Of a DNA stretch of 64,000 nucleotides, positions 3,872-57,391 are shown piece after piece. The stretch covers positions 17,459 to 81,458 of the forward strand of contig CAZPMT010000001.1 of assembly GCA_964587655.1 (NCBI GenBank), read 5' to 3'. The notes beneath the pieces are model-generated. The model worked only from the letters and a program-made list of their open reading frames with translations, did no database searches and was not told the DNA's origin. The translations under genes were made by a program, and so were the position numbers. The stretch's first letter is position 1, and each line of letters begins with the position of its first letter. This stretch comes from an uncultured Nitrospiraceae bacterium. GTDB taxonomy: Bacteria; Hydrogenedentota; Hydrogenedentia; Hydrogenedentales; SLHB01.

Positions 3872-3895
3872 GACAAGGGGTTGCAACCCCTTGTC
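3872..3895. repeat. 24-bp perfect palindrome GACAAGGGGTTGCAACCCCTTGTC (copy 1 of 4)
   Basis: exact palindrome 2 bp after the stop of the upstream URO-D gene and 24 bp before the start of the next; further copies at 15387-15410, 38494-38517 and 49276-49299 (1 mismatch). Confidence 0.85.
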
Positions 3896-9633: not shown

Positions 9634-9990
9634 CTGCCCTCCCATTTGCCACGCAGAACCCGGAATCGTCCATTCGCTTTCGATCACGAGTGCGATAATG
9701 GTAAAGAGTTTGTGCAGTCCCCGCAAATCCGATCGCGCGCGGGCAAGCCGATAGCATCGAACGCGCCGCCAGAGGAACGTCTCCACTTTGCTCATGAAAC
9801 TGTCGCTCGCCAGAGGACACCCCGTCTGCGTGCGAATCGAGCCATGACCAAGACGATAACATATTGCCCGCCCCCAGCCAGATAAAGGGTAACTGTTCTT
9901 GACACGGCCTTAAGGAATGTCGCACCATGATTCTATTGCTTTGACCGCCTGAAGGGAGATGGCGGATAGTCAGGGCTGCGGGGATAGATC

Positions 9991-12900
9991 ATGCCTGCAT
10001 TGTTGGACGAGTATATATTCACAGGCGTAACGGGCAATGCGGCGTGGGCCGCCATCAAGACGGCGTGGGAAGTCGCCACTAAGAAGTCATGGGAACAGAT
10101 CTATCTCGACGCGTTCCCGAAGGCGCTTGCCGCTTCGAAGGAACAACCCAGGAAGTACACTGATGGCGCTGAGCCTTTATTGAATGGCGCCGCCCTGCAG
10201 CGCGCCATCACACGCGCGGCGGCGTCACCGCTTGCCGACCACGCTCTCACCGAGTTGACCGGGGATGCACTCGTGAAACATCTCGGGGCCGTCATGGCCG
10301 AGGAGCGGGTAATCGAGTTCGAGGGGAACAACCTGGCGGAGGAAGGATACGCACAGGTAGTGCGCAACCTCGTCCGCTCTGCCCATGCCGTCTTCTGGGA
10401 CGGTGTCGTGAAGAACGAGACGGCCTTCCGCAATGGCGTGTTCTTGGAGTTCCAGGCGAACCGCGCCCAACTACAAGACATCAAAGACGCCCTCTCTAAG
10501 CTCAGCCTGTTGAAAGCGCTGGACGAGAAACAGGATTACCAGACACGGCTTCTCGAGCGGCAGTCGCTTTCAATGGACGAGATCAAGGGTATTGTCTTGC
10601 GCATTGAAGAGCGCCTCGCCCGGAAATCCTTCGATAGGGAACTGGACGAGGTACTGCCTCCCGCGAAGCGAGAGCCTGCGGGTGCACCGAAGTTCGAAGC
10701 CGACTTCGTTCATGCCTATCCGCTGCAAGCGAACTTCACGGGGCGGAAAACGGAACGCCAGGCGCTTCTCGACGTGAAGTATGACGTTTTCGTCAGCTAT
10801 AGCCATAAGGACAAAGAATGGGTGCACGGACGGCTATTGCCCGGTCTGGAGAGATCGGGACTGAAGGTGTGCCTTGACTTTCGGGACTTTGAGCTGGGCG
10901 TTTCAGCGGCCATCAACATGGAGCGCGCAGTGCAGCAAAGCCGGAAGACCATTCTCGTGCTTACACCGAACTGGGTCGAAAGCGAGTGGACGGAATTTGA
11001 GTCCCTGCTGATCCAGACCAAAGATCCGGCAGGCCGGCGTCAACGCATGTTGCCGGTGATGCTCGAGGAATGCAGCCTGCCTGACCGTTTGAGCATTCTG
11101 ACGTATGCGGACTTCAGAAATGAACAGGATTGGGAGTTCCAACTCGAGCGCGTGTTGCGCACACTCTGTGTTGAAAGGACAACTGCTCCGCCAAGCGATA
11201 AGCTTCCCGTAGTCCAACCCATCATCCAGCCCGATTTTGTCCATCCGTATCCGCTGCAAGCTAACTTCACGGGGCGGAAGAAGGAACGCGGCGCGCTGAC
11301 GACGTGGTTTGTCCAGCGTGAGCAGCCGGTGTATGCCGTGGTCGCCATAGGGGGTATGGGCAAGTCGGCGGTAACGTGGGTGTGGGTGTTGCAGGATCTG
11401 CTGGGGCTGCGCACATTCACGAAGGAGGCGTGCGCGGTCGAGCAGGAGAACCGTCCCGAGGGGGTGTTGTGGTGGAGCTTCTATGACAGCAAGGCACGGT
11501 TTGCGTCGTTCCTAGATCGCGCGCTGGAATACGCGAGCGGCGGGGCCGTGGACCCGCGCGGGATACCGTCGGAACACGACAAGGCGGACAAGCTCATCGA
11601 CCTGCTCGAAAAGCGCGACATCCTCCTGGTGCTCGATGGGTTTGAGCGTGAACTCCGGGCGTATGCGAGTCTGAACGCGCCATACATGGGAGACGGTGAG
11701 GAAAGACACGAGGTCACGGAACAGCGCGTGTGCGTCGACCCGCACGCGGCCTACTTCCTCCAGTGGGCGGCGTCACTGCCGTTGCGGGGCCGGATCCTGA
11801 TGACGACCCGCCTCATGCCGCGCGATCTGGAGGGGAACGACGGCAATCCACTTGACGGCTGTGCGAATAACGAACTGAAAGGCTTCGACCCGGCCGATGT
11901 GGCGGCTTTCTTCCGCGCCGAGGGCATCAAAGGAATGCCATCCGAGATCAAGGCGGCCTGCGCTCCTTACGCATACCATCCACTCGCCGTTCGGCTGTTG
12001 GCCGGGGCGATCATCCGAGACAAACGCAAACCGCGGGACATTGAGACCGCCAAGCGGCACGTGGTCACGGCGGAACTGAAGGGCAAGGACAAGCATCACA
12101 TCCTGCAGGTGGCTTACGATGAATTGGCCGCGAAGCGCCGCAAAATCCTGAGCCAGATCGCCGCGTTCCGCAATCCCATGACCTTCGAAACCTTGGCGGC
12201 CGTGCTGCCCGTGAGCGGCGCACACGAACTGGAAGTCATCCTGGACGAGTTGGTCGAGCGCGGCCTGCTGCTCTGCAACGACGGCCTATACGACCTGCAT
12301 CCCGTCGTGCGGCAATATGCCTACGAACGGCTGACGGACAAGGAAGGCGTCCACACGCGCTTGCGCGACCATTTCAGCGCCGTGCCCATGCCGCAGGACA
12401 CGGAGAAGGTCAAATGCATCGAAAACCTCGACCCCGTGATCGAGCTGTACCACCACACGGTCCGGGCGGGGCAGTTCGACGAGGCCTGTGACGTATTCTA
12501 CGTGCGTCTCCAGGACGTTCTGTACTACCGCTTCGGGGCGTACGATCGCTGCATTGAACTCTTGTGCGCACTGTTCCCGGAGGGAGAGCCTTTGGTCAAA
12601 GACGGCCAGGCCAAGGTACCACGACTGACGAAGGAATCCGACCAAGCCTGGGCGCTGAACGCCCTTGCCTGCTGTTGCAGTGCGTCCGGCCAACCCCGGC
12701 GGGCTTTGCCGCTGTTTGAGCTACAGAACAAGCTCCGGGATGACGCAAAGGACGAGATGAATCTTGCCATTGGCCTGGAAAACTTGGCCTGTATGGCGCA
12801 ACTCCACCTCGGCCAACTGGGTGCTGCCGAAGAGAACCTCCGTCGGAGCATCGCCTTGTCTCGGGAGATTAGGGACGCGCTCGGGGTGGCTGACGCGTGC

Positions 12901-13578
12901 CAGAATTTGGGGCTGTTGCTGGCATGCCTGGGAGGGTTTGGTGAGAGCGAGACAGAATTGGACGCGGCGGTGCGGGGCTTCAAGGAGCAAGAAAAGACGC
13001 AGGGCGAGGGCATCGTTGAGTGCAGCCGCGCCCTGCGGGCCATCATCATGGGAGATGCCCAAGCCGCGTTGGCAGCCGCCCGTCACGCGCTGGAGTTGTG
13101 GCACAAGACGGCAAGAGAGAGATTCCGCTACGAGCGCGACCGCGTGCGGGTCGAGTGGTTGGTAGGCTGGGCGCTGACGGCCCTGGCGGAAGAGCGGCCG
13201 GGGGACGTGGCCAGTCTCCTTGCCGAGGCCGAACAGCATCTCACCGAGGCACTGACCCGTTGCCGGAACATCAACATGGTCGATCACGAGCCGGACATTC
13301 TCCTGGCTTGGGCGCGTTGGCATTTCGCGAAAGGGGACGCGGTTCGCGCGAGCCAGTGGGCTGCGGAGGCCCTATTCATCGCCGACCGGTGCGAGTACCG
13401 GCTGAAGCAGGCCGACATCCACAACTTCCTTGCGCGGCTTGCGCTTGATGCCGGTGACAAGGCCGCAGCACGAAGCGAAGCCGGGATCGCGAAGGAACGC
13501 GCTTGGTGCGACGGCCCACCGCATTGTTACAAACCCGCCCTCGATGAAGCCGAACGCCTGTTGAAAGAGATCGGGTAA
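9991..13578 (+). CDS. TIR-domain / STAND (NB-ARC-like P-loop NTPase) / TPR-repeat protein with ~250-aa unknown N-terminal domain; candidate defense or signalling NTPase
   Basis: TIR: YDVFVSYSHKDKEWVHGRLL...; P-loop AIGGMGKSAVTW, Walker B ILLVLDGFE; C-terminal TPR-like helical repeats; an intragenic direct repeat (10702-10759 / 11233-11290) brackets the TIR. Confidence 0.8.
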   Translation: MPALLDEYIFTGVTGNAAWAAIKTAWEVATKKSWEQIYLDAFPKALAASKEQPRKYTDGAEPLLNGAALQRAITRAAASPLADHALTELTGDALVKHLGAVMAEERVIEFEGNNLAEEGYAQVVRNLVRSAHAVFWDGVVKNETAFRNGVFLEFQANRAQLQDIKDALSKLSLLKALDEKQDYQTRLLERQSLSMDEIKGIVLRIEERLARKSFDRELDEVLPPAKREPAGAPKFEADFVHAYPLQANFTGRKTERQALLDVKYDVFVSYSHKDKEWVHGRLLPGLERSGLKVCLDFRDFELGVSAAINMERAVQQSRKTILVLTPNWVESEWTEFESLLIQTKDPAGRRQRMLPVMLEECSLPDRLSILTYADFRNEQDWEFQLERVLRTLCVERTTAPPSDKLPVVQPIIQPDFVHPYPLQANFTGRKKERGALTTWFVQREQPVYAVVAIGGMGKSAVTWVWVLQDLLGLRTFTKEACAVEQENRPEGVLWWSFYDSKARFASFLDRALEYASGGAVDPRGIPSEHDKADKLIDLLEKRDILLVLDGFERELRAYASLNAPYMGDGEERHEVTEQRVCVDPHAAYFLQWAASLPLRGRILMTTRLMPRDLEGNDGNPLDGCANNELKGFDPADVAAFFRAEGIKGMPSEIKAACAPYAYHPLAVRLLAGAIIRDKRKPRDIETAKRHVVTAELKGKDKHHILQVAYDELAAKRRKILSQIAAFRNPMTFETLAAVLPVSGAHELEVILDELVERGLLLCNDGLYDLHPVVRQYAYERLTDKEGVHTRLRDHFSAVPMPQDTEKVKCIENLDPVIELYHHTVRAGQFDEACDVFYVRLQDVLYYRFGAYDRCIELLCALFPEGEPLVKDGQAKVPRLTKESDQAWALNALACCCSASGQPRRALPLFELQNKLRDDAKDEMNLAIGLENLACMAQLHLGQLGAAEENLRRSIALSREIRDALGVADACQNLGLLLACLGGFGESETELDAAVRGFKEQEKTQGEGIVECSRALRAIIMGDAQAALAAARHALELWHKTARERFRYERDRVRVEWLVGWALTALAEERPGDVASLLAEAEQHLTEALTRCRNINMVDHEPDILLAWARWHFAKGDAVRASQWAAEALFIADRCEYRLKQADIHNFLARLALDAGDKAAARSEAGIAKERAWCDGPPHCYKPALDEAERLLKEIG

Positions 13579-13624
13579 CGCTTCGGCGGCGGACGTTGCC
13601 CTGCCGTAGCGTGCTGAACGCTGG

Positions 13625-13692
13625 TGGCGCGACGTTTCCAACGTCGCGGGGTAGCTGCCAGATCGAACTGCGACGTTGGAAACGTCGCGCCA
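13625..13692. terminator. 23-bp perfect inverted repeat (TGGCGCGACGTTTCCAACGTCGC / loop 22 nt) downstream of the TIR-STAND gene and convergent with the PIN operon; stem-loop, possibly a bidirectional terminator
   Basis: arms 13625-13647 and 13670-13692 are exact reverse complements; no T-run, so a rho-independent terminator is uncertain. Confidence 0.35.
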
Positions 13693-13776
13693 CTGTGAAT
13701 AGTTTGTCAAGTTATTTTGGCGCGCCGCCTAAGCGTCAATGAACGGCGAAAACGGAGCGCGAACGCGGCGTCCTCG

Positions 13777-15386: not shown

Positions 15387-15410
15387 GACAAGGGGTTGCA
15401 ACCCCTTGTC
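15387..15410. repeat. 24-bp palindrome GACAAGGGGTTGCAACCCCTTGTC (copy 2)
   Basis: exact copy; ~17 bp after the upstream gene stop (15427) and ~40 bp before the downstream start (15347). Confidence 0.85.
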
Positions 15411-15426: not shown

Positions 15427-16174
15427 TCACCACGCGATCTCGCTGATAAGCCGTTCGAGGTTTCGGTGGGCAATCGCTTCGCGCGCCTCCTCGCCGATCT
15501 CCGCCCGGTACACCATGAGTACATAACCGCCGGCATAGTTGCGCGGCAGGCCGGAACCGAACACGATGTGGTTATACCCCACCTTGTTGACGATGCTCTG
15601 TAGTTGTCCCGCGGTCTCGAGTCGATTCGTCGTGATGAAAAACCGTTCGTACCTTCTCATGAGGGGCCGGAAATATCGGTCCTGTCCCCAACAGCCGGTC
15701 TCTGTGAGGATGAGTGTGAGCCGCGGGAAGTCGCGCATGATCTGATATACGCCCTGCCATCCGCCGGGCACTTCCGGAAACGGCACAATCACCGGGAGGT
15801 AACACGCGGCGAACAACTCCAATAGATTGCCGCAGGCCACGGGATCGAGCGTGAAACAGTGCCGTGTCGGAAACGCTCGCGCCGCTAGCACGCCTGACGC
15901 CCGCGCGTGTTTGACGAATTCCCCCGCAGGAAGCATCTCCTCGCAACACGTGGGCACAAACGTTATCGTCGGGTACAGGCGCGTGTACGCGTCCAGATCC
16001 GGGAGACGCCGGTTGCCCACGTCAAAATCGCGTTCCCACGCATCCCGGTGCCACACGAGGGCCTTCTGAATGCCGGAGTGGTCGAGTTCCGCGACGAGGT
16101 CCTTGACGGTTTCGATCTCGCGCGGCAGCGCGATGGCCCCGCGTCCGTACGACACGTCGCAATCAAAAAAGTCC
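15427..16174 (-). CDS. amidohydrolase-like TIM-barrel protein (probable GTG start overlapping the PBP1A stop)
   Basis: sequence resembles amidohydrolase-2 fold proteins; start inferred at GTG with a GGAGA RBS; the track's longer ORF overlaps the PBP gene. Confidence 0.45.
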
Positions 16175-18367
16175 ACGAAGTTCCGTCTCCGATCCCAACG
16201 GCTGCATTCCGGCCGCGTCCATCCGTTCGACCGGTGGCATGGTCCCCGCGATAAACGCTTCGCGAAACGATCCGCCTTCGACCCCCGTATTCCGGTCCAC
16301 CTGGAAAAAGGTGACGCCATCGGGCACTTCGAAATCCTGCACCGGCAGGCCTTCCTCCGCGGCAATCATGAAATCTGTCCAGACGGGGTTGGCCAGGCGT
16401 CCGCCCGTAAAATCCTTCCCGTGGCCTAGGGGCCGGTTGTCACGATAACCGATCCAGACCACGCATGTGAAATCGGTTGTGAACCCGCAGAACCAGACGT
16501 TCCGGCTCTCATTGCTCGTGCCCGTTTTCCCGCCGCGTGTGCGGCCCGGTTCCGCCTTGTCCCATTGGGCCTGCGTATTGGCGCCCGTGCCGAAACGGCA
16601 TACGCCCTGCATCAAGTAGGTGAGCACGTAAGCCACGTTCGCGTTCATGACCTCTTCGCGCGCGGCAGGTTTAGTCATGCCGGAAACGGTGACGCCGTCG
16701 CGGTTCCGGATTCGCGCGATCATCACTGGGTCATAGCGGACGCCTCCGTTCGCGAAGCACGAGTAGGCGACGCAATGATCGATAACGGTAACGTCCGGCG
16801 AGCCGAGCGCAATCGTGAGTCCCACGGCGTTATCGATGGGCGTTCGGATCCCGGCGCGTTCGAGGAGCGACCGCACCTGCGGCATCCCTAACCGTTCGAC
16901 GAGTTTGATCGAGACGATGTTGATCGATTTCGCGAGCGCATTACGCAGCGTAATCGGGCCTTGGTAGTCGCCGCCGAAGTTCTTGGGCGTCCACACGTTT
17001 CCCCACGGATCCACGCGGACGAACGGCTCGTCGACCTCGATGTCGGAAGGGGTCATGCCGTTTGCGATGGCGGTGGCCCAGACGAACGGTTTGATGCTTG
17101 AACCGGGCTGGCGCCGGGCCTGCGTGGCGGTGTTGTACTTCTCTTGTTCGAAGTCGCGTCCGCCTACCATCGCGCGAATGTATCCCTTGCTGCCGGGACG
17201 GTTGTCGATACAGACGAGCGCCCCGGTCACGGGCGTGAACTCGCTCTCCTTGCCGTCGCGTTTGAGTGCTTCGCGCTTCTTGGCGTCGAAGTCATCGAGC
17301 GCCTTGAAAAGGCTCTGCTCGGCGGCCTGCTGCATGCGCCAATCGAGGGTCGTGCGGACCTCGAGGCCTTCCTGAAAGACTTCGGTCTTATCGGCCTGAC
17401 TCAGCAGATACTGGCGGATCTCCTCGACGAAATACGGCGCCTTGAACTTGTTCGGCTCCCAGATTCCTTTGCCGTCCGCGGCCAACTGCTGCCGCTTCTC
17501 CGGCGTCATGACCGAATCCTCGACGGATTCCTTGATCGCGGCGTCGTATTCCTGCTGGGTGATGAACTGGTTTTCGAGCATCTGCTGGAGAACGATGTTG
17601 CGTCGCTGGCGCGAGTTTTCCAGGTAGTGAAACGGCTCGTTCTTGTTCGGCGACCGCGGCAAGCCGGCCAGCAACGCCGCCTCGCCGAGTGTCAATTGCC
17701 AGCAGTGCTTGCCGAAATACTGTTGTGAAGCCGCCTCGACTCCATAGGCGCTCACACCGAGGAACACCTGGTTCAGGTACAACTCGAGAATCTCGTCCTT
17801 CGTGAAATCCCGCTCGATCTGAAGCGCGATCAGGGCTTCGCGGAGTTTCCGTTTCACGGTCCGCTCCTGTCCCACCTCGAGCGGCTCGACGTTCCGGACC
17901 ACCTGTTGCGTGATGGTGCTTCCCCCGCGCATACGCTGCCCCGACAGTAACGATGAAACGAACGCGTTCAGGATCGCGTCCGGACGCACCCCCTTATGCT
18001 GGTAGAAGGTGTCATCTTCGGTGGCCAGAAACGCCTTCTGCACGTACAACGGGATCTCCGACAGGTTCACCAACTGGCGCTGCTCGATCGAGAACTCGCC
18101 CAGAAGTTCGCCATCCGCTGAGTACACCTTGCTGCCGACTTTCGGCCGGAACGTCTCGAGGGCCTGGATCGCGCTCTTCGTGTCGTTCAAGATCCACACA
18201 AACGCCCCGAGCGCCGCGCCCCAGCCCGCGGCGAGTAGGAGCATGCCCGCAAGGAACAGACCCGCGCAACCGCGCTTTCGAGGAAGCAAGAGGGCGGTTG
18301 TATCCACAGTTTGTCGTGGCTTGACAAACTGTGCGGCGGTTTCGCTTGAGGCGTCCATTGATCGCAT
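16163..18367 (-). CDS. penicillin-binding protein 1A family (bifunctional GT51 transglycosylase / transpeptidase)
   Basis: GT51 motif ATEDDTFYQHKGV, transpeptidase SSIKPF (SxxK), N-terminal TM anchor. Confidence 0.85.
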   Translation of the reverse strand: MRSMDASSETAAQFVKPRQTVDTTALLLPRKRGCAGLFLAGMLLLAAGWGAALGAFVWILNDTKSAIQALETFRPKVGSKVYSADGELLGEFSIEQRQLVNLSEIPLYVQKAFLATEDDTFYQHKGVRPDAILNAFVSSLLSGQRMRGGSTITQQVVRNVEPLEVGQERTVKRKLREALIALQIERDFTKDEILELYLNQVFLGVSAYGVEAASQQYFGKHCWQLTLGEAALLAGLPRSPNKNEPFHYLENSRQRRNIVLQQMLENQFITQQEYDAAIKESVEDSVMTPEKRQQLAADGKGIWEPNKFKAPYFVEEIRQYLLSQADKTEVFQEGLEVRTTLDWRMQQAAEQSLFKALDDFDAKKREALKRDGKESEFTPVTGALVCIDNRPGSKGYIRAMVGGRDFEQEKYNTATQARRQPGSSIKPFVWATAIANGMTPSDIEVDEPFVRVDPWGNVWTPKNFGGDYQGPITLRNALAKSINIVSIKLVERLGMPQVRSLLERAGIRTPIDNAVGLTIALGSPDVTVIDHCVAYSCFANGGVRYDPVMIARIRNRDGVTVSGMTKPAAREEVMNANVAYVLTYLMQGVCRFGTGANTQAQWDKAEPGRTRGGKTGTSNESRNVWFCGFTTDFTCVVWIGYRDNRPLGHGKDFTGGRLANPVWTDFMIAAEEGLPVQDFEVPDGVTFFQVDRNTGVEGGSFREAFIAGTMPPVERMDAAGMQPLGSETELRGLF
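18305..18333. repeat. 29-bp split palindrome CACAGTTTGTC-N7-GACAAACTGTG (copy 1 of 3), inside the 5' end of the PBP1A ORF
   Basis: exact 11-bp arms; copies at 19838-19866 and 20139-20167. Confidence 0.8.
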
Positions 18368-18509
18368 ACGGAGAGCTTACCATTCCATGTTTTTGCGCTG
18401 CAAAGGCGTGACGGCACGCCGCAACAAGGGTGTTAATCCCCATCGGTGGCCGATGGATGCATGACCCTGAATTCGGCAGTTGAAACCGAGAGGAATCGTC
18501 CGAACGCTG

Positions 18510-18603
18510 GACGAGGCGGACTCTATGGACGAAATGGACGTAACCCCGCAGGAGAGCCTTTTCGGTGTCCACGTCGTCCATAAAGTCCATGCCGTCCATC
18601 ATT
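18510..18603. repeat. ~95-bp imperfect hairpin element built from 9-bp-periodic GTGGAC / GTCCAC half-sites (4 per arm)
   Basis: reverse complement aligns closely with 52950-53042; arms contain (R)TGGAC-N3 repeated four times with period 9. Confidence 0.7.
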
Positions 18604-20122
18604 GAGGCTGTCGGAAGCTCACTTCGCCGAGGGTTGCCGAGATCATCATGAATACGGCGCAGAACACGCATCCCAGAACCGCCAGCGCGAGCAGATTGGG
18701 CGCCATGTGCCGCTGCAGCAGGAAGACCGCCGCGCTCGCAACCGCCGAAGCGAAACTAATGCGAATCAGGGACGCCCAAGGAAACGACCAGCGCAGGTGG
18801 CGACGTGATGCCAAGGCCAGGAGCACGGCCAGTACGGCGTTCGCGGCGAGGCGGGCCATGCCGCAACCCACATAGCCGTACGTGCCGATGGCCAGCCTGT
18901 TGATGACGAGATTCACGGCGATGCTGACAACCGTAATCGCCAGCAGCGTCCCGGTACGCTTGGCGAGATGGAGACCGAACGAGGCGTAATAGCTCAAGCC
19001 ATAGACAAGAGCGGCCGCGACGAGCCAAGGGGCCACCAGATACGCGGCCCGATACTCCAATCCTGTGAGCGTGAACATGACGTGATGGCCCAGCACGGCC
19101 AGCATTGCGCATAGCGGGAGGCAGAACAGGAGAAACTGGCGCGTCAGTTGGCGCAACAGATCCTCCGTGGCCTCTCTGCCCTTTGTTTCGTAGAGCGCGG
19201 TCACCGCGGGAAACACGGCCACCATCAAAGTGTGGAGGACCATGCTAATGGGTTGTTCGATAAGCTGGCACGCCGCGGCATAGGCGCCCACCATGGCGTC
19301 GCCCCGGAAGTACTTCAAGAGGTAACGGTCCGTATTCCCCAGGAAGAAATTCAGGATGAGCGTGCCCAGAATGGGCAGCCCATAAAGAAGGCATTCCTTC
19401 AATAAGGCCTTCTGCGCGGACGTGAGAGAAAGGGGAATGGGATGAACGAGATCGCGTCGCATCAATGAAAGGGCGATGACTATCGAGGCGAGCCCTAGTC
19501 CGCACAAGAACCCCACGACGCCGGTCCCGGAAAGCCAAAGTACGAGAAGCCCAAGGGGCAAGCGTAACACGGCGTTCGAGGCGGCGGCCACGGAGTAGGC
19601 CCACGGTTTGCCTTTTGCGCGGGCTGTCGCCAGACCCAACTCCATGAGACTGTTTCCGACGAACACGAGAGCGGCCACACCGAGAAGGCTACGGTAAGAT
19701 CCGAAGAGGGATTCAGGTCCGGCGGCCCACACAATCCCAAGCAGAACAAGGCTGCCGCCAATGCCGGCCCAGCGCAGCAGGGCCACGACGGAGTTGAACG
19801 CAAAAGGGTCGGCCCCGGCTCCTCCTTCCTCCTTGGAACAGTTTGTCGCCGCTTGACAAACTGTGGCGTAACGCGGGTAGAAGCGCAACAGGAGGATGGT
19901 CAGCCAGATCGCGCCGGTCGTAGTCAGGAACATCACGAGGCGCATCGTAAGGTCGTAACGTCCGAAATCCTCCGGCGATAACACAAACCGGGTCAGCACG
20001 GCGGTCGTCACAAACGCCATAACGGCGGGAACGACGCGTCCGGGCAGGTAGGCAAGGGTGTCCTTGCCGATCGAGGCCAGCGTGGGCGTGTTATCTGGAA
20101 TCGCGGGATCTTGGGAAGTCAT
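18599..20122 (-). CDS. polysaccharide biosynthesis protein, Wzx-like oligosaccharide flippase (MOP superfamily)
   Basis: ~12-14 predicted TM helices, typical MOP flippase composition; contains an in-frame copy of the 29-bp palindrome encoding a hydrophilic loop (TVCQAATNCS). Confidence 0.6.
   Translation of the reverse strand: MTSQDPAIPDNTPTLASIGKDTLAYLPGRVVPAVMAFVTTAVLTRFVLSPEDFGRYDLTMRLVMFLTTTGAIWLTILLLRFYPRYATVCQAATNCSKEEGGAGADPFAFNSVVALLRWAGIGGSLVLLGIVWAAGPESLFGSYRSLLGVAALVFVGNSLMELGLATARAKGKPWAYSVAAASNAVLRLPLGLLVLWLSGTGVVGFLCGLGLASIVIALSLMRRDLVHPIPLSLTSAQKALLKECLLYGLPILGTLILNFFLGNTDRYLLKYFRGDAMVGAYAAACQLIEQPISMVLHTLMVAVFPAVTALYETKGREATEDLLRQLTRQFLLFCLPLCAMLAVLGHHVMFTLTGLEYRAAYLVAPWLVAAALVYGLSYYASFGLHLAKRTGTLLAITVVSIAVNLVINRLAIGTYGYVGCGMARLAANAVLAVLLALASRRHLRWSFPWASLIRISFASAVASAAVFLLQRHMAPNLLALAVLGCVFCAVFMMISATLGEVSFRQPQ
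19838..19866. repeat. 29-bp split palindrome ACAGTTTGTC-N7-GACAAACTGTGG (copy 2), in-frame inside the flippase ORF
   Basis: sequence match. Confidence 0.8.
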
Positions 20123-21750
20123 AGGACGGAAACCTGTTCACAGTTTGTCGTGATTTGACAAACTGTGGGAACGCTTTCCCGCGGCGCGTCTTCCTGCTCG
20201 GTGGCGATACCGTACCGGATCGCAAGGCCGAAGAACGTCCAGATGACGATACCGTGTCTCATGTTGATTAAGAACAGGGATTCGGCCATACCGGAAAGCA
20301 ACGTTGCAAGGAAACCGAACATGGCCGCCGTGACAAGCTCATGGTCCAATTCCCTACCTTCAAGCCGCTTGCGCAAACGGTAAAGCATCCACCCCACGCT
20401 ACCGATCAGGAACACCGCCGCCGCCGTGCCGAGCAGACCGAATTCGGCGAGCATCAGCAGGTACATGTTGTGCGGGTGGGGCAGGGTGATATGCCCGCGG
20501 TAGTAGAAGACGAATCCGACGTCGCTGAAGCCCTCGTAGGCCCAACCGTACTCGGTTTCGAGCCGGGGGTACATCGCGCCGGGTCCCGTGCCGAACAGGG
20601 GATGGTCAAGCCACACGAGGGCCGCTGTCCGCATGCTCTCCGTGCGGCCTCCGATACTTTGCACTTCGTAGTATCCGCGCGACCAGAAGCGGCTGAAGTC
20701 GTACGTCATGAACAGATAGGCCATGCCGCAGATCAGCACGGCGAAAAAGCCGCCTATCAGGAACAGTTCGACGCCGCGAGACTTTTTCCTCGAGAGCAAC
20801 AGGTAGGCGAAGACGAGCATCAGGGTTATGCCGGAGACCCCCAAGGCCGTGCGAGAGAGAGAGAACAGGATGCCAATGAATATCGCTCCAGCCGCGGCCA
20901 GGTACAAGCCGCGAAAGAGCGCCCCCTTCTGTCGCACGCCAAGGACCACGCAGATGACCATGAATATCTGGAGCAGCGCGGCGGCCGTGTTCGGATGCCC
21001 AAGCGGGGTCCTTCCGCGCGCGAGATCCAGGGTGCCGAAACCGAAGCCCGTCCAGCCGAGAAGTCCAATGACACGTTCCGGCATCAGGCCGAACACGGCC
21101 AGGATAAGGCCGGTGGCGGCGGCCAGGCCGATCATCGCCTGCATGCACACTCGAGAATGAGACTTGGAAAGGTTGGTCATTGGAATGACGGCCACGAGCG
21201 CCATCGGGAACACGATCGCTCCCAGGGAAAGGACTTCGGCAATCGCCGACCTATCCTTCACGTAAGGGTCCCAAAACTGGTTGAGAAAGAGGGAAAAGGC
21301 GCAAAGACCCGCAAACAACAGAAGTCCCGCAACAAACCTGCGAGCGAAACGCTGCTCGGGCGAAACATCCCCGGCGCGCGCGTACCGGTCCCAGGGAACG
21401 GTCAGCGCGAGCAGGAAGACGCATGGAACCGTAAGCCAATATGCAACGGGGATGCGGAAACGCTCGTTGATGACGATCGAGAAGATATCGTCAATCCGGT
21501 TGAGACCCGCAAAACAGTACAGCGCGGGCAGGAGCAGGATAATTCCCGGCGCGCCCACCATCTTATACGCTGCGGCCACAAGCAGTATACCGAATGCCAC
21601 CAGCGCGGCCGCGCCGTAGTTCATCGCGGCTATCACGCCCGCCGCGACGCAGAGAACCACCGTCACGGGCAGAAGTATGCGTGCCGCCTGTTGCCGCTTC
21701 CCGTGCAGGTACAGTGCCGGGCCTGTGCCCAAGTCTCGGCTCTGCGCCAT
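20119..21750 (-). CDS. O-antigen ligase / polymerase family (Wzy_C-like) integral membrane protein
   Basis: many TM helices, a large periplasmic loop and an FSLSRTALG-type segment typical of the WaaL/O-antigen ligase family; start chosen at MAQSRD (internal to the track ORF). Confidence 0.55.
   Translation of the reverse strand: MAQSRDLGTGPALYLHGKRQQAARILLPVTVVLCVAAGVIAAMNYGAAALVAFGILLVAAAYKMVGAPGIILLLPALYCFAGLNRIDDIFSIVINERFRIPVAYWLTVPCVFLLALTVPWDRYARAGDVSPEQRFARRFVAGLLLFAGLCAFSLFLNQFWDPYVKDRSAIAEVLSLGAIVFPMALVAVIPMTNLSKSHSRVCMQAMIGLAAATGLILAVFGLMPERVIGLLGWTGFGFGTLDLARGRTPLGHPNTAAALLQIFMVICVVLGVRQKGALFRGLYLAAAGAIFIGILFSLSRTALGVSGITLMLVFAYLLLSRKKSRGVELFLIGGFFAVLICGMAYLFMTYDFSRFWSRGYYEVQSIGGRTESMRTAALVWLDHPLFGTGPGAMYPRLETEYGWAYEGFSDVGFVFYYRGHITLPHPHNMYLLMLAEFGLLGTAAAVFLIGSVGWMLYRLRKRLEGRELDHELVTAAMFGFLATLLSGMAESLFLINMRHGIVIWTFFGLAIRYGIATEQEDAPRESVPTVCQITTNCEQVSVL
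20139..20167. repeat. 29-bp split palindrome CACAGTTTGTC-N7-GACAAACTGTG (copy 3), at the ligase/flippase gene junction
   Basis: sequence match; encodes the C-terminal TVCQITTNC of the upstream ORF. Confidence 0.8.
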
Positions 21751-39266: not shown

Positions 39267-41258
39267 ATGGCTAAAGAAAGCCAGCCGTCCGTGCTCAATG
39301 GCGAAGAACTCGTCAAACAGGAAGTAATCACTCGAGAGGAACTGGCCAACGCCCACGCGCATGAAGCCGCTACGGGTACACCGTGGTACCGGCAGCTTCT
39401 CCAAACGAAGAAGATGAGCTTCGGCGCGCTCGAGGATATTCTGTTCCGCGAGTTCCATCCGCGCTCACTTCGTGACGAACATGCCCGCCTCGGCCAGACC
39501 CTCGTCAGTATCAAGGCAATCACTCAGAATCAGCTTACCCAAGCGTTGGCGGAACAAAGCCGCAGCGGACGGCTCTTGGGGAACATTCTCCTGGATCTTC
39601 GTCTCATAACGCGCGAGATGATGACGAAGGCCCTCGCCCGGCAGCACGGGATCGAATGTGCCGAATTAAAGAGCATGCCCAGCACCCCGGAAGCTCTCGA
39701 TTGTGTTCCTCGAAACGTGGCGCGCGACAACCTTATGTTGCCGGTCCGTATCGAGGGAGACAAACTAACCGTACTCATCCCCGACCCGCAGGTTCTGGAC
39801 CGTTTGCAGAAGGTCGGTATTCTGTTGGGTAAGCGGATTCATCCCGTCCTTACAACGGTGGAAGATATGGCGGCAGAGATTGCGCTCCGCTACGGAGGAG
39901 GTGTGAAGAGCCGCCCCGTCGAGGCGCCTCGCACGAAACCCGCAGTTCAGCAGATTACCAACGCAGCACAACCGCGACCGCCCAAGACGCCGGCACAGGC
40001 TGAATCGAAACCCCAACCAAAGGTGACCAAAATGGAAGAAACAAAACAAACAGCTTCAGAGAGTCAAGGGAAAGTCGATCTGAAACGTTTTGAGGAAATT
40101 GCGAGGGAAGCATCCGGCGTCCCGGTGATGAAACTTGTAACAACCATTATCGAAGGGGCGGTGAATTCAGGAGCAACGGACATCCACCTTGACCCGCAAG
40201 ACCCTGAAATGCGCGTAAGATACCGTATTGACGGCATTCTTCACGACATAATGAGTATTCCCGCCGAAGCGCAGAACGCGGTGATATCACGCATAAAGAT
40301 CATGAGCGACATGGATATCACCGAGACCCGGCATCCGCAGGACGGTCACATAAGCATGGAGGTGGCTAACCAAGAGTTCGATATCCGCGTCGCCACCCTC
40401 CCTACGTTTCTCGGCGAACGCGTTGTACTTCGCCTGCTTGACCAATCCACCGTGCTTTCCGGCATTAAAGACTTGGGTCTCGAATCGGATGATGAGAAGC
40501 GGCTTCGCAATATCATTGGCCAGCCATATGGAATGGTCCTTGTCACCGGGCCGACTGGGAGCGGTAAGACGACAACACTGTATGCCGCTCTTAATCAGAA
40601 GAACGTCATCACGGACAGTATTGTCACACTCGAGGATCCCATTGAGTATCAGCTCTCAGGCATAAACCAGGTCCAGATTGAATCGGACATTGACGTGACG
40701 TTCGCGACCACCCTGCGGGCAGCGTTACGACAGGATATTGATGTACTTCTTGTCGGTGAAATTCGCGACGTTGATACGGCGCGGATAGCAATTCGTGCTG
40801 CAATGACCGGGCACTTAGTGTTCAGCACGCTTCATACAAATGATGCACCCGAAGCTATCAGTACACTTAGAAACATGGGTATTCCGTCTTACCTAATCGC
40901 CAGTGCTCTTACCGCCGTTGTTGGCCAACGCCTTGTAAGAATGATTTGTCCTCATTGCAGAACGGAGTTTAAGCCCCCAAAGACGCTCCTTAAATCAGTC
41001 GGCTTACCCGAAACGACAAATGCGCTATTTCGAGGTGCAGGTTGTGAAGTTTGCTACCACACCGGATGTAAGGGTAGGACGGGCATATTTGAGATCTTAG
41101 AGGTGACACCCTCAATTCGGCGTATGATAGCAGTGGACGAATCAATAGAGAAGATAGCGCAAGCAGCCAAAGTTAAGACGCTTTCCGATCGATGCCGATT
41201 GAAGCTCAAGGAAGGTGTAGTAGCGCCTGAAGAGTTCTTCCGAACCATTAGAATGTGA
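39267..41258 (+). CDS. GspE/PilB-family type II secretion / type IV pilus assembly ATPase with N-terminal GspE_N domains and C-terminal tetracysteine motif
   Basis: Walker A LVTGPTGSGKTTTLYAAL; Asp box and His box regions; CPHCR...CEVCYHTGC zinc motif. Confidence 0.8.
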   Translation: MAKESQPSVLNGEELVKQEVITREELANAHAHEAATGTPWYRQLLQTKKMSFGALEDILFREFHPRSLRDEHARLGQTLVSIKAITQNQLTQALAEQSRSGRLLGNILLDLRLITREMMTKALARQHGIECAELKSMPSTPEALDCVPRNVARDNLMLPVRIEGDKLTVLIPDPQVLDRLQKVGILLGKRIHPVLTTVEDMAAEIALRYGGGVKSRPVEAPRTKPAVQQITNAAQPRPPKTPAQAESKPQPKVTKMEETKQTASESQGKVDLKRFEEIAREASGVPVMKLVTTIIEGAVNSGATDIHLDPQDPEMRVRYRIDGILHDIMSIPAEAQNAVISRIKIMSDMDITETRHPQDGHISMEVANQEFDIRVATLPTFLGERVVLRLLDQSTVLSGIKDLGLESDDEKRLRNIIGQPYGMVLVTGPTGSGKTTTLYAALNQKNVITDSIVTLEDPIEYQLSGINQVQIESDIDVTFATTLRAALRQDIDVLLVGEIRDVDTARIAIRAAMTGHLVFSTLHTNDAPEAISTLRNMGIPSYLIASALTAVVGQRLVRMICPHCRTEFKPPKTLLKSVGLPETTNALFRGAGCEVCYHTGCKGRTGIFEILEVTPSIRRMIAVDESIEKIAQAAKVKTLSDRCRLKLKEGVVAPEEFFRTIRM

Positions 41259-41259
41259 G

Positions 41260-41933
41260 TTGCTTTATATCTTATCCAAACAGCGGAGTTTGAGGCCTAG
41301 TGTCGTTCTGTTAGTAACCTGTGGAAAACTGGCCTTTTCTTCACTTTGATGGTGCTATCTTACTTGTCGCTACTAAGACGCAAGTTCCTGAAATTATTCA
41401 TGTTATCAAGTTATCAAACAGAAAGAATGGATTTTAGTATATTAACGGAACTCGTTTTACCACAGTAGTTTAACTGACAGTATCTTCTACTAGATGAAGG
41501 TTATATTCTACAGGAGATTATGGTTCCACGGGATGTGAATACATGTTGCAGTTGATTTAAGGAAATCGCCATTTCTCAACAAAAAGAGCCTTGTTGATAA
41601 CTAGAAGAAACAGTATGAAACATAAAGGTACAGCGCTTTCACGTAAATGCTGCTGTCAATATATAATAAAGGAAGCACATATCCACAGCAAAAAATGAAA
41701 AGTGGCGTTAATAAAGGTACATCAAGAGAGATGTAAAGATTGATCTACACAAAAGAGAGAAAACCTGATCAATCATTCAATAATAATCCACAATCTATCT
41801 TTCGAAATCGAAACAGGTTACAATACTTATCCAAAGATTTTCAGACACTACTACTAAGACTACTTGTTTTACATATCGTCATTGATCATAATATGCATCG
41901 CAATCCACACAGGAGAAACGAGGGAGACTTAGA
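41260..41933. other. 670-bp AT-rich non-coding region with six DnaA-box-like 9-mers (TTATCCACA, at most 1 mismatch) immediately upstream of dnaN; candidate oriC
   Basis: boxes at 41272-41280 (TTATCCAAA), 41320-41328 (rc TTTTCCACA), 41679-41687 (ATATCCACA), 41784-41792 (TAATCCACA), 41827-41835 (TTATCCAAA), 41901-41909 (CAATCCACA); GC ~37% vs ~65% for the window. Confidence 0.4.
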
Positions 41934-43040
41934 ATGAAGATACATATTCCACGTCAGGATCTTCTTGACAAGGTAAATCAGGTGAAGACGGTTGTTTCAT
42001 CTAAGTCGGCGCTCCCGATTCTCTCTCACATTCTCATGGAAACACAGGAGAGCGCCGTTCGTCTTTCGGCAACTGATTTGAAAGTGAGTATTGAGTCCGT
42101 TGCTGATTGCTCAGTTGATGAAGCAGGTTCTCTTACGGTTTCTTCTCAGCGCTTAGCGATGATTCTTGCCGAGCTTCCAAATGCTGACATTACGTTGGAA
42201 CTGGCAAAGAACAATGTTGTTACTCTTACGTGTGGAAGAATTAAGACGAAGTTGTTTAGTATGGCGCCGGAGGAATTTCCGCCACTAAGAACATTTGATA
42301 ATATCGAGCCGTTGGTATTATCGCAATCGATGCTTTGTGGTATGTTCGCAAAGACGTCTTTCGCTATATGCTCCGATCAAGCTCGCTATAACTTGACGGG
42401 GATTCTTTTCGAGATTAAAGATGGAAGATTGATTGTTGTAGCGACGGATGGGCGTCGGATGAGTCTTTGTGTGGAAACAGATGGAGTGCCAAAGGGTGTA
42501 AATGTAAAGGTTATTATTCCAGGGAAAATGGTAGCTGAACTTGAACGCCTATTGGGTAGCGATGGTGATGTCTCCGTTTATATCGATGAGTCGCAAACAG
42601 CATTCGCGTTTAATTCAGCGCGCTTGGTCACAGCCCTTATAGAAGGCAACTTTCCTAACTATGAGATGGTGGTTCCAAAAAAGCATGACAAGGAAGTATT
42701 AATAAGTACCGCTGTCTTAACAGAAGCAGTTCGTCGTACGCGGACAATGACGAACGATAAGTTTAACTCGGTGCGATTTGTTCTTGTAAGTGGTTCAATG
42801 ACGTTGAAGGTAGTCACGCCCGAAGTAGGTGAGTACGAGGAAGAAATCCCTGTCGAATATGATGGAGAAAGAGTTGAGATTGCCTTTAACCCTGATTTTG
42901 TTCTCGATATTCTTCGCCATATAGAGACGGAAATGCTCTGTCTTATTCTAAAGGATACGACAAGCCCTGGTGTCGTGAAACCATATGCCGAAGCGCCTCT
43001 TGATTCCTATGTCAATGTAATTATGCCTATTCGGCTGTAA
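41934..43040 (+). CDS. dnaN: DNA polymerase III beta subunit (sliding clamp)
   Basis: MKIHIPRQDLLDKVNQVKTVVSSKSALPILSHILMETQ... three-domain beta-clamp pattern, 368 aa; strong RBS AGGAGAAACGAGGGAG. Confidence 0.85.
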   Translation: MKIHIPRQDLLDKVNQVKTVVSSKSALPILSHILMETQESAVRLSATDLKVSIESVADCSVDEAGSLTVSSQRLAMILAELPNADITLELAKNNVVTLTCGRIKTKLFSMAPEEFPPLRTFDNIEPLVLSQSMLCGMFAKTSFAICSDQARYNLTGILFEIKDGRLIVVATDGRRMSLCVETDGVPKGVNVKVIIPGKMVAELERLLGSDGDVSVYIDESQTAFAFNSARLVTALIEGNFPNYEMVVPKKHDKEVLISTAVLTEAVRRTRTMTNDKFNSVRFVLVSGSMTLKVVTPEVGEYEEEIPVEYDGERVEIAFNPDFVLDILRHIETEMLCLILKDTTSPGVVKPYAEAPLDSYVNVIMPIRL

Positions 43041-43044
43041 CTTA

Positions 43045-44304
43045 TCATGATGATTGATCTGAACTATTGCTGCTTTTCAACATGTTTGCAATTGTAGCGG
43101 CAAATTTTGCTATTATCTTTTCCCGTTCATAGAAATCCGCTTGCTTAAGTGTATTTAGCTGCCATTCCAAGATAGTGTCTGTCTTCTCAGCTATTTCCAT
43201 TAGTAAGACTGACATCTGCTGCGCTGTCTTCCAATCGATACAGGGGCCGAGATTATTATCGCGTATTTCGCAACCAAGAGGACTGTCTGCATCACATACC
43301 GCCAATATGGGAGTACCGGATGTAATTCCCGCAATTATTTTGGAAGGAATGAACGAACTCTTACTTGCACCCTTTTCCGTGATTACAAACAAATCGGTTT
43401 TATGTAGTGCAGCCGCAAACGCTGACTCATCCAAGAAAGGCCCAAATGTAAAGCGTGAATCTTGTACAGCATCAATCCAAGACTCAACCGAGAATGCTTC
43501 AGATCCATTTCCATAAACTGCAAACTCAAACGGCATGGTGCTCTTCTGTAACATCTTACAAAAACAAAGTAGGTCCTGTTTTTCGCCTATATTCCCTGCA
43601 TATAGAAGACGGATAGGTTGATTAGGTGAACGCCCAATCTTAGACGGCAGTTTACGAATCTCCTCCGCCAACGAAGCATTAAGCCAATTCGGCAGATATA
43701 GAATTTGCTGATTTCGCTGGCGAAACTGCTCTAATCGCGTAACCATAGCCGGTGATATTGTGCTCCAGACATCTGCTCGGTTGAATAGAAATCGTTGCAC
43801 TGAATCTAAGATCCCCGGAACAAACTTTCCTGTTGCAATGCCGCTTGCCGCTGCGGCATCTGCCGAAAGATCCTGCACATTAAGCCAGAGCGGCTTACCA
43901 TAAATGAGCTTGTTTATTGCTGCAAAACCCACGGCGCCGACAAGTGGACAATAGGTCATAACCAGATCGAAAGCTCGTCCGCCTGGAAGAGACCTAATCA
44001 ATGACAGAAAGAACGATGCTTCATAGAAAAGCCGTTGAACAAAGGAACCGGGCTTGCTTGGAATGAAGATTCCATAACGTTCGACATGTACGCCCTTTTC
44101 CTCATATCGTTGAACTCTCAACCCATTCTTCCCGCTCTTATCCTTCCATTCCGGATAGTATGGATAGACACAACGAACTGTAACATCGTAGCCGCGTTCG
44201 ACCAGTCCATAACAAAGGTCGCTGAAGATTGCACCTCCCCCGCCCCGATCGGGGCTGAACACATTGACAATAATGAGCAGGCGCGGCTTGTCTCTTGTGA
44301 CCAT
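43045..44304 (-). CDS. glycosyltransferase family 4 protein (WbuB-like); low-GC (~43%)
   Basis: Glyco_trans_4-like N-terminus (LLIIVNVFSPDRGGGG) and GT1-type C-terminal domain. Confidence 0.75.
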   Translation of the reverse strand: MVTRDKPRLLIIVNVFSPDRGGGGAIFSDLCYGLVERGYDVTVRCVYPYYPEWKDKSGKNGLRVQRYEEKGVHVERYGIFIPSKPGSFVQRLFYEASFFLSLIRSLPGGRAFDLVMTYCPLVGAVGFAAINKLIYGKPLWLNVQDLSADAAAASGIATGKFVPGILDSVQRFLFNRADVWSTISPAMVTRLEQFRQRNQQILYLPNWLNASLAEEIRKLPSKIGRSPNQPIRLLYAGNIGEKQDLLCFCKMLQKSTMPFEFAVYGNGSEAFSVESWIDAVQDSRFTFGPFLDESAFAAALHKTDLFVITEKGASKSSFIPSKIIAGITSGTPILAVCDADSPLGCEIRDNNLGPCIDWKTAQQMSVLLMEIAEKTDTILEWQLNTLKQADFYEREKIIAKFAATIANMLKSSNSSDQSS

Positions 44305-44461
44305 GAATCTTCCTTAACCTGTATGTCGATTCAAGCAAGCTCTATTCTTACAGACGGACGTGGCTCTCGTCCATGTTTGGATCGCCATAACTATTCTGCA
44401 TTTCAATCGACGGTTGATTTTTGCTAGAGTACATTATAATCGGGTTCAGGAGGATATAGTG

Positions 44462-45637
44462 ATGACAGTGACCATTCTTGCAGTCCTGCTAGCCGTTGCA
44501 GGCGCGGATAGTAACGCAGCCGCCCAAAAGGCAACAACCGCGGAGGAAACGTCAATGCTGAAGTTTGAAAAGATACGCATCGGAACCGTGACCTATGAAG
44601 CCGGCGCGGTATTTGACGTAAACAATGACGGTATTCTCGATATCGTCTCGGGTGAGTACTGGTTTGAAGGGCCGGACTTCCAAAAACAGCACAAGATCTG
44701 CGATATCCAACGGGTGGACGATTACTACGACGACTTCAGCGACTATCCTATCGATGTCAACGGCGACGGGTATCTCGACATCGTCACCGGCGGCTGGTGG
44801 GGCGAGACGCTTCGCTGGCGTGAGAACCCGAAAGGACAGATCGTCGAATGGAAGGCCCATGACATCGGTAAGACAGGCAGTATTGAGCGCGCCTGCTTTT
44901 GGGACATCGATGGCGATGGAAACGTGGAGGTCGTGCCTAACTGCCCAGGAAAGCCATTCGTCGCGTTTAAGCTTGACCGCGATGCAGCCGGAAAAGGCGC
45001 GGGAACGTTCAAGAGATTCGTGTTGTCTGATATTCCTCAGGGTCATGGTCTCGGTTTCGGAGACATATCCGGAAGCGGACGCGGGGACATCGTCAGTGCC
45101 GGCGGATGGCTTGAAGCGCCGGCCGACCGATGGAATGGCAAGTGGGAATGGCATCCCGAATTCAATTTTGGCGGCGCCAGTGTGCCTATCCTGGTCCATG
45201 ATGTAAACGGTGATGGGCTCAACGACATCATCGTAGGCCAGGGCCACGACTATGGTCTCGCGTGGTGGGAACAGCGCAAGGACGGCGAGGGCAAGCGCAC
45301 CTGGATTAAGCACGACATCGATCCGAACCGCTCGCAGTATCACGATATGCAGTTGGTCGACATTGACAACGACGGCCAACTGGAACTGATTACCGGCAAG
45401 AGGTACCGTGCGCATCAGGAGAACGATCCCGGTTCGCTCGACCCGATCGGAATCTACTATTTTAAGATCAACGGCGGCAACTTCGTCCGAAACACGATCG
45501 ACTATGGACCCGCCGGAAAAGCCAGCGGCGCCGGCATATACTTCTGGGTACAGGACATCGACGGCAACGGATGGAAAGACGTCCTTGCCCCAGGCAAAGA
45601 CGGATTGTTCTTGTTTAAGAATCTCGGCCCGAAATAG
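44462..45637 (+). CDS. secreted FG-GAP repeat (integrin-alpha-like beta-propeller) protein
   Basis: signal peptide MTVTILAVLLAVAGA; repeated DxNxDGxxDIV FG-GAP motifs; GGAGGA RBS. Confidence 0.6.
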   Translation: MTVTILAVLLAVAGADSNAAAQKATTAEETSMLKFEKIRIGTVTYEAGAVFDVNNDGILDIVSGEYWFEGPDFQKQHKICDIQRVDDYYDDFSDYPIDVNGDGYLDIVTGGWWGETLRWRENPKGQIVEWKAHDIGKTGSIERACFWDIDGDGNVEVVPNCPGKPFVAFKLDRDAAGKGAGTFKRFVLSDIPQGHGLGFGDISGSGRGDIVSAGGWLEAPADRWNGKWEWHPEFNFGGASVPILVHDVNGDGLNDIIVGQGHDYGLAWWEQRKDGEGKRTWIKHDIDPNRSQYHDMQLVDIDNDGQLELITGKRYRAHQENDPGSLDPIGIYYFKINGGNFVRNTIDYGPAGKASGAGIYFWVQDIDGNGWKDVLAPGKDGLFLFKNLGPK

Positions 45638-57005: not shown

Positions 57006-57324
57006 AGGTCCTTATCGCCTACAACATCGCCCTGCTCCAGGTCATGCTCAACCGCGCAGCCGTCTCCATGCGAAACGCCCCCCTTGTCGACGACACCGTA
57101 GCGTCCACCGACGCATACCACATGAAATCGTCCAAACCCAGCGCGCATCTCGAAGCATTCACCAGAATTTCGCGCGAGTACAGGCATTTCGCGACAATGG
57201 TCAAGGCGTCCGAGCCCGTCGAGCCCGACCCGGCGGACTTCTTCAACTACAAAACCCGTACCGCGATCGATACCGACCTTGACCCAGACAACGATCTATT
57301 TCTTCATCTGTGCCACCCCACATC

Positions 57325-57391
57325 GTCATTCCCGCGAAAGCGGGAATCCAGGACCGCACGCACGCTGGATTCCCGCTTTCGCGGGAATGAC
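57325..57391. mobile_element. short copy of the MITE-like element: GTCATTCCCGCGAAAGCGGGAATCCAG inverted repeats separated by 13 bp
   Basis: arms 57325-57351 / 57365-57391 identical to the TIRs of the element at 1078-1224. Confidence 0.5.

Follow-up and report, generated by a model that had tools for sequence, protein, structure and literature searches.

Why should the same 29-bp split palindrome occur three times within 2 kb of bacterial DNA, each time inside a gene for the cell envelope? The question is raised by a 64,000-nucleotide stretch of contig CAZPMT010000001.1 (hereafter the window, meaning the whole stretch that was analysed) from an uncultured bacterium placed by GTDB in the Hydrogenedentota. 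A first-pass annotation had pointed out the palindromes in a penicillin-binding protein/flippase/O-antigen ligase cluster and had offered two readings of them, operator sites for a dimeric regulator or a small insertion-prone palindromic element tolerated in frame. Judging from sequence comparison with related loci, the three palindromes are in all likelihood independent, recent insertions of a non-autonomous 27-bp mobile element.

We searched the whole 64 kb for CACAGTTTGTC-N7-GACAAACTGTG, with up to 3 mismatches tolerated. Exactly three matches were found, at positions 18305–18333, 19837–19865 and 20139–20167, against a chance expectation of 0.00 (100 dinucleotide shuffles). No degenerate copies of the 29-mer were detected elsewhere in the window at this threshold, half-site searches of the window gave nothing beyond the chance level, and no copy is present in the window outside the PBP1A/flippase/ligase cluster. 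By our own calculation, the chance of three sites falling inside 1.86 kb of 64 kb is ca. 3 × (1.86/64)^2 = 0.0025. The cluster reported by the first-pass annotation is thus real, and its open reading frames (ORFs) and frames were essentially right. Its coordinates hold for the first and third copies and have to be corrected for the second, which had been put at 19838–19866. Likewise, the 7-bp spacer varies as described, and the 11-bp arms are exact in copies 1 and 3 (no mismatches) but not in copy 2, where the outermost base differs. This base (AACAG on the plus strand) belongs to the flank: the conserved mobile core is 27 bp long (10 + 7 + 10), and the mismatch seen in copy 2 arises because the 29-mer includes one flank position on either side, its outer C and G.

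The proposed element consists of a 10-bp arm ACAGTTTGTC, an oriented 7-nt loop and the complementary arm. All three window copies are located inside minus-strand ORFs, in the same orientation and with three different loops. Copy 1 (18306–18332, minus strand) reads ACAGTTTGTC-AAGCCAC-GACAAACTGT on the coding strand and adds QFVKPRQTV to the cytoplasmic N-terminal tail of the class A penicillin-binding protein PBP1A (16163–18367, minus strand; Pfam Transgly and Transpeptidase domains). It occupies codons 12–21 when numbered from the first ATG; the start in relatives is the second ATG, at 18358. Copy 2 (19838–19864, minus strand, loop AAGCGGC) adds TVCQAATNC to the loop between transmembrane helices TM2 and TM3 of a 507-aa Wzx/MOP-family polysaccharide flippase (18599–20122, minus strand; Pfam Polysacc_synt and MurJ). 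Copy 3 (20140–20166, minus strand, loop AAATCAC) adds TVCQITTNC to a Wzy_C-domain membrane protein, O-antigen ligase/polymerase-like by Pfam (20119–21750, minus strand), at a point six codons ahead of the stop of its gene, whose start was adopted from a 543-aa gene call on contig L126, which is identical to the window. This copy is contained in the last 15 codons of the gene, and the flippase start, which overlaps the stop (ATGA), follows 17 nt downstream.

In an alignment of 13 flippase homologues with 39–94% identity, TVCQAATNC corresponds to a clean 9-column gap in all 13, including protein P0001 (93%). The PBP1A insert, QFVKPRQTV, is missing in 13 of 13 PBP1A homologues. Since the TVCQAATNC gap is found in every homologue, the flippase ORF is a single gene; its product is a MOP/Wzx protein that is continuous apart from nine residues inserted in a loop, and the alignment does not support the earlier doubt as to whether the 507-aa ORF is one gene.

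Contig L127, which encodes P0001, matches window positions 17685–21698 with 92–95% nucleotide identity, and it is precisely at the three palindromes that the match is interrupted. All three copies are missing from L127, and each difference is exactly 27 bp, ACAGTTTGTC-N7-GACAAACTGT, without target-site duplication or loss of bases in any of the three comparisons. With a slash marking the insertion point, the L127 sequence is GCCGC/CGATAC at empty site 1, TACGCC/TCCAAG at empty site 2 (insertion between GCC and TCC) and GCGCCCCC/GAACAGG at empty site 3 (insertion between C and G). The base 3′ of the insert at site 1 is G in the window and C in the empty allele. The three window copies arose after ca. 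6% divergence from L127. Comparison of locus against locus provided 11 independent filled/empty pairs with 86–99% flank identity; in all 11, the two alleles differ in length by exactly 27 bp, and a target duplication is seen in none. The pairs, together with the homologues and the relative that lack the inserts, bear out the second reading of the first-pass annotation, that of an insertion-prone palindrome tolerated in frame.

The window and its relatives also differ by a larger rearrangement. Compared with L127 (4281–5126), the window is without ca. 0.85 kb at 18466–18606. In three relatives (L127, L135 and L136), this segment encodes a DUF2284 protein and the flippase C-terminus (the last ~15 codons), so that the window protein ends in ...SFRQPQ and those of the relatives in ...SFRQLFSMLQPRGKTDEGPR. 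The 141 bp that replace the segment contain inverted repeats rich in GGAC/GTCC. The endpoints of the deletion (~18466 and ~18606) match no 27-bp copy.

The family in other genomes and its effect on coding

Contigs of JGI metagenomes were scanned with the strict 29-mer, which retrieved at least 120 contigs (ca. 0.46 Mb, 54–63% GC); the copy counts are lower bounds and carry an ascertainment bias. The copy statistics given below refer to the matches listed, from metagenome and genome-collection loci together (ca. 125 loci). Among them, at least 233 copies have a 7-nt loop; the arms are perfect in 208 (89%), and one, two and three arm mismatches are found in 19, 3 and 3 copies, respectively, with none showing four or five. 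Shuffled controls contained 0 arm-pair copies. A recurrent variant, ACACTTTGTC..GACAAAGTGT, has a compensatory change in both arms by which stem pairing is kept. The loop is oriented and partly conserved, with the consensus AAACCAC, and falls into subfamilies, the main loops among the matches listed being AAACCAC (35), AAACCCC (32), AAGCCAC (30) and AAACGGC (28). Adjacent copies have an identical loop in 41 of 111 cases versus 10.4 expected, which fits subfamily copying; loop variants specific to each genome would, however, produce this signal as well.

The stem is 10 bp long and AT-rich in a genome of 60% GC. Calculated folding energies of the hairpin are −8.7 to −9.9 kcal/mol as DNA, −12.7 and −14.7 kcal/mol for isolated RNA copies and −17.6 kcal/mol for the copy 3 RNA hairpin in a 66-nt context. 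Copies may be nested, as in L117, where one is inserted into the loop of another (the outer element is found empty in L082), or may adjoin directly in tandem with a 27-bp spacing. As a probe for replication-strand bias, we counted adjacent copies with the same orientation, and the concordance is modest (70 of 110). Several familiar sources of short repeats were rejected: a CRISPR array, since the spacing is not regular; an intrinsic terminator, since a T-run is lacking and the copies interrupt coding sequence; and an uptake-sequence or Chi-like motif, since the copies come from insertion of 27 bp and not from point mutation.

The target was analysed with 143 copies free of ascertainment bias and oriented by the loop. 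C is found at position −1 in 90% and at −4 in 73% of these, and G at +1 in 76% and at +4 in 50%. The C at −4 is already present in empty sites.

The host ORFs are functionally unrelated: they include TGT (queuine tRNA-ribosyltransferase), a GHMP kinase, a methylase, TetR, HlyD, an IS66 transposase, a BNR protein, a weak GT2 match and a PAS histidine kinase. In TGT, the copy is located in a part of the protein that has no aligned counterpart in solved TGT structures. Because the hosts are so unrelated in function, envelope genes are not favoured by the element. Each insertion adds a net 27 bp and therefore the reading frame is never shifted, and the element itself is stop-free in five of six strand/frame combinations.

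For the coding test, elements were removed in silico, the longest ORF across the junction was taken and orientation was counted for each junction phase. At phase 0 (between codons), 59 copies have the same orientation as the ORF and 57 the opposite one; at phase 1, the numbers are 27 and 26. At phase 2, where the opposite orientation creates an in-frame TGA, they are 43 and 20, or 25 and 9 when only mid-ORF copies are considered. The stop-creating combination is thus depleted about two-fold and no other phase is depleted; the much stronger depletion (1/211 in the stop frame) obtained when the longest ORF is taken with the element still in place is an artefact of that choice. Except for stop avoidance, orientation relative to transcription is random. 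As many as 92% of the copies are in ORFs of at least 300 nt, and mid-ORF copies make up 61%, compared with 78% of random positions, with enrichment near ORF ends. Such a pattern agrees with a selfish element that is largely intragenic and under weak purifying selection.

The genome-collection scan contributed 5 loci among the matches listed, of which one is a true relative. This locus, L005, belongs to a metagenome-assembled genome (MAG; CAVXEF01) labelled Phycisphaerales and carries 3 copies in 1.1 kb. The other four (Treponema, two from Nostoc, and Oscillibacter) are AT-rich intergenic hairpins with other flanks and loops and were dismissed as chance or terminator matches. The window PBP1A is closest to proteins labelled Candidatus Hydrogenedentes/-ota (60–65% identity) and PlsX of L005 to those of Sedimentisphaerales and Planctomycetota (75–80%). 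Identical arms and loops are common to the Phycisphaerae-labelled MAG and the Hydrogenedentota-like genome; the element may accordingly be present in two phyla, with taxa as given by the MAG labels. The datasets with the element are independent of each other: they comprise several metagenomes from JGI, a MAG derived from ENA and a Logan assembly that is identical to the window. No match to the element was found in viral contigs, Rfam gave no match in the window, and no description was found in the searchable literature, queried for the sequence itself and for comparable elements of Planctomycetes/Phycisphaerae.

Origin of the copies and the enzyme that would move them

We propose that the element is selfish DNA, suited to a gene-dense genome because it would be translatable. 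Its conserved stem and semi-conserved loop would be the recognition site of a trans-acting enzyme encoded elsewhere in the genome. Stem, loop, oriented target preference, lack of duplication and stable hairpin together point to a sequence-specific enzyme with a folded strand as its substrate. Among such enzymes, the HUH Y1 transposases (IS200/IS605, RAYT) are the best known, and a HUH single-strand transposase, IS200/IS605- or RAYT-like, working on the folded hairpin would be the most plausible candidate. The cluster at PBP1A, flippase and ligase would then reflect local hopping combined with the tolerance of loops and protein termini, and not envelope regulation. As likely side effects, three envelope proteins would each carry a 9-residue loop and the mRNA would form a stable hairpin 17 nt upstream of the flippase start.

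Several observations weigh against this proposal. No cognate transposase was found among the ca. 46 window ORFs scanned against Pfam, no gene family recurs beside the copies when the 1,103 ORFs of the loci are clustered all against all, and a RAYT gene was found neither in the 64-kb window nor in the ORFs of 125 loci. Phmmer searches with IS200, IS608 and RayT queries, to be taken as a lead only, gave one IS200-like match, in L027. Positions 1400–2050 of this contig hold a complete-looking IS200-like element, in which a gene for a 142-aa TnpA (1517–1945) lies between CCCCGGC..GCCGGGG hairpins, but these end hairpins are unrelated to the 27-bp element. The IS200-like element adjoins an IS630-like transposase gene that holds two 27-bp elements; the IS66 transposase gene of L042 holds three. 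Further, the 27-bp copy counts suffer from the bias mentioned above, and the three window copies did not simply copy one another, given that their loops differ. The syntenic DNA of relatives L127, L129 and L132–L136 (PBP1A 76–94% identical; ca. 92 kb) contains zero copies. Such a patchy, clustered distribution is what local hopping or recent invasion would give.

The chemistry raises a further difficulty. In several events, C or G is present in the filled allele and another base in the empty or canonical sequence, as seen at window site 1, in L110 and L117, in the tandem pairs of L122 and L090 and in several nested copies. What is transferred may thus be a unit of 28–29 nt, with one or two bases of the target overwritten. 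Rewriting of flank bases is not predicted by classical IS200/IS605 chemistry, and the orientation concordance of 70/110 is also weaker than the strand bias typical of IS200/IS605. Because neither feature fits the classical scheme, a different chemistry is possible, and there is a real chance that the insertion chemistry is new. A broader claim, that the family represents a new class of minimal transposable element (a single translatable 27-nt hairpin, mainly in coding DNA, inserted without duplication and with flanks overwritten to C/G, possibly cross-phylum, and mobilised by an enzyme), is conceivable, though on balance doubtful.

The operator reading of the first-pass annotation, in which a dimeric transcription factor would co-regulate PBP1A, flippase and ligase as one envelope locus, draws on the perfect 11-N7-11 dyad, on the three copies within 1.9 kb of a single functional locus and on the distance of no more than ca. 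45 nt between two of them and a start codon. Yet all three are inside coding sequence and are lacking in a 92–95% identical relative with the same genes, more than 200 further copies occur inside unrelated genes, nested and tandem copies exist, and a constant length of 27 bp is the signature of insertion. An operator would be expected at a conserved position in the promoters or intergenic DNA of a regulon; these copies are intragenic, lie in unrelated genes and are lacking at orthologous loci. We therefore consider operators very improbable. With copies in unrelated genes of at least 120 contigs, the motif is also plentiful in other places and shows no preference for one locus, the outcome that the first-pass annotation itself had named as refuting a locus-specific reading. 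Core sites of a tyrosine recombinase (lox/dif-like), which would invert or delete segments of the polysaccharide locus and so cause phase variation, would account for inverted arms around an asymmetric spacer of 6–8 bp and, at first sight, for the loss of ca. 0.85 kb with the DUF2284 gene between flippase and PBP1A. Sites of this type have identical spacers and bound the rearrangements they cause, but here three differing spacers would block strand exchange, all sites have the same orientation, the sole rearrangement relative to L127 has endpoints (~18466, ~18606) that coincide with no copy, no recombinase gene is nearby and copies are scattered through unrelated genes; we give this explanation very little credence.

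Two other readings accept that the insertions are real. The element might be retained for a REP-like service to the host, such as mRNA stabilisation, translation coupling or nucleoid/gyrase/IHF-type binding. The stable RNA hairpin (−12.7 to −14.7 kcal/mol), the enrichment near ORF ends, the placement of copy 3 exactly at an overlapping stop/start junction and, possibly, selection on structure behind the 89% perfect arms and the compensatory variant would agree with it. However, apart from stop avoidance, orientation to transcription is random, close relatives manage without copies, most copies are mid-ORF, and youth with rapid turnover explains perfect arms equally well, so that we regard a host service as unlikely. 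Alternatively, the 27 bp could have been inserted by machinery other than a transposase, either a templated single-stranded DNA hairpin (retron/msDNA-like) or copying during microhomology-mediated repair. The overwriting of flank bases to C/G in several events, the lack of target duplication and the lack of a transposase in the window or recurring at the loci all speak for it, while no reverse transcriptase or retron is present among the window ORFs scanned, and the strong oriented target preference and the faithful loop subfamilies fit a site-specific enzyme better than repair; this, too, we judge quite unlikely. Finally, a short perfect hairpin of constant length could come from a hairpin adapter or a chimera in sequencing or assembly, but copies from independent datasets and assemblers, with loop subfamilies, target preference and stop-frame depletion, leave an artefact next to no probability.

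Should the insertion of a mobile 27-bp element be confirmed, it would rank with the smallest units of DNA whose recent mobility is directly evident, here from exact empty and filled alleles in close relatives. It would also be a clear case of selfish DNA fitted to gene-dense genomes, with a length that is a multiple of three and five of six frames free of stops. The steady supply of 9-residue loops, as in PBP1A, the Wzx flippase and the Wzy-like ligase, would amount to a natural insertion scan of protein tolerance and be a source of surface and envelope variation. In practice, the inserts can prompt false suspicion of split genes in gene callers and reviewers and distort alignments, and they can serve as sharp strain-level markers in metagenomes. 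The rewriting of flanks hints at an uncharacterised insertion chemistry.

Other repeats and genes of the window

Two further repeat families were noted. One is a perfect 24-bp palindrome, GACAAGGGGTTGCAACCCCTTGTC, at window positions 3872–3895, 15387–15410 and 38494–38517; it also occurs in L005 (3837–3860), L007, L079, L101, L105, L122 and L135/L136, and is thus common to the window and the Phycisphaerae-labelled L005. At least the window copy at 15387 is between genes, and it is conserved at the orthologous site of the close relatives L135 and L136. The other resembles a MITE (a miniature transposable element with inverted repeats), with long inverted ends that each contain the hairpin GTCATTCCCGCGAAAGCGGGAATCC; the window copies, at 1079–1223 and 57321–57395, are ca. 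145 and 75 bp long, and the repeat is also present in L072, L090, L104 and L029. In L090, a 27-bp element lies within a GTCATTCCCGCGAAAGCGGGAATCC hairpin, and the same site is empty in the window and in L072.

Positions 40001–45000 form a low-GC island (0.44–0.45 versus ~0.60 elsewhere) with dnaN, encoding the DNA polymerase III beta subunit (41892–43037), and, upstream of it, a gap of 640 bp; a GT4 glycosyltransferase gene lies on the other strand. The island could be an origin region or foreign DNA. An ORF of 1,196 aa at 9988–13575 (plus strand) has a TIR domain (residues 264–389) and TPR repeats and may encode a defence or signalling protein. It is followed by a predicted tRNA-Gly(TCC) at 13604–13696 that is unusually long (93 nt). 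A minus-strand ORF of 1,384 aa (33894–38045) has an unusual architecture that brings together six PASTA repeats, a BACON domain and, at the C-terminus, an FGE-sulfatase domain.

Comparison with known mobile palindromes

Members of the IS200/IS605 family and their palindrome-associated derivatives (PATEs) share with the 27-bp element the dependence on hairpins, the lack of target duplication and insertion in a fixed orientation directly 3′ of a short motif (here C at −1 in 90% and at −4 in 73%). They differ in having separate left- and right-end hairpins with guide sequences and a length of at least ca. 100 nt, compared with a single 27-nt hairpin here, and in that our family shows occasional rewriting of flank bases and a weak strand bias. 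MITEs (Correia/NEMIS, Nezha, QMITEs of Coxiella) are likewise non-autonomous, have inverted-repeat ends and occasionally occur in ORFs, but they are 50–500 bp long and come with target-site duplications, which were seen in 0 of 11 pairs here. The yeast mitochondrial GC clusters and byp hairpins are very short mobile palindromes that colonise coding regions; their setting is organellar and eukaryotic, and byp elements are skipped by the ribosome, whereas the 27-bp insert keeps the frame open and is presumably translated.

Rickettsia palindromic elements (RPEs) are ca. 100–150 bp long, degenerate and known only from Rickettsia. Measured against this length, the element described here stands apart with 27 bp in 11 of 11 polymorphic sites and with nearly always perfect copies; it is, moreover, polymorphic between strains that diverged by ca. 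6% and belongs to free-living sediment or soil lineages (Hydrogenedentota and Phycisphaerae labels). RPEs are found in frame in functional genes (Ogata et al. 2000, as cited in PMC3733652). To the extent of that secondary account, both are selfish palindromes that add a peptide in frame to many unrelated proteins.

The likeness to repetitive extragenic palindromes (REPs) and the REPIN–RAYT system lies in a short hairpin (20–40 bp), many copies, family-specific stems and loops, and the fact that no target duplication has been described for REPs. The GTAG/CGTC tag of REPs is not contained in the invariant part of the 27-bp element, which instead has the flank C(−4)NNC(−1)/G(+1)NNG(+4), and this C-N-N-C flank belongs to the target. 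REPs are predominantly extragenic, whereas the 27-bp element is mostly intragenic, has a fixed length and is mobile as single hairpins without doublets. Intragenic REPs have been catalogued, with an in-frame example in Opitutus terrae (Di Nocera et al. 2013, PMC3733652). Intragenic REPs and RPEs are thus established precedents for in-frame palindromic repeats.

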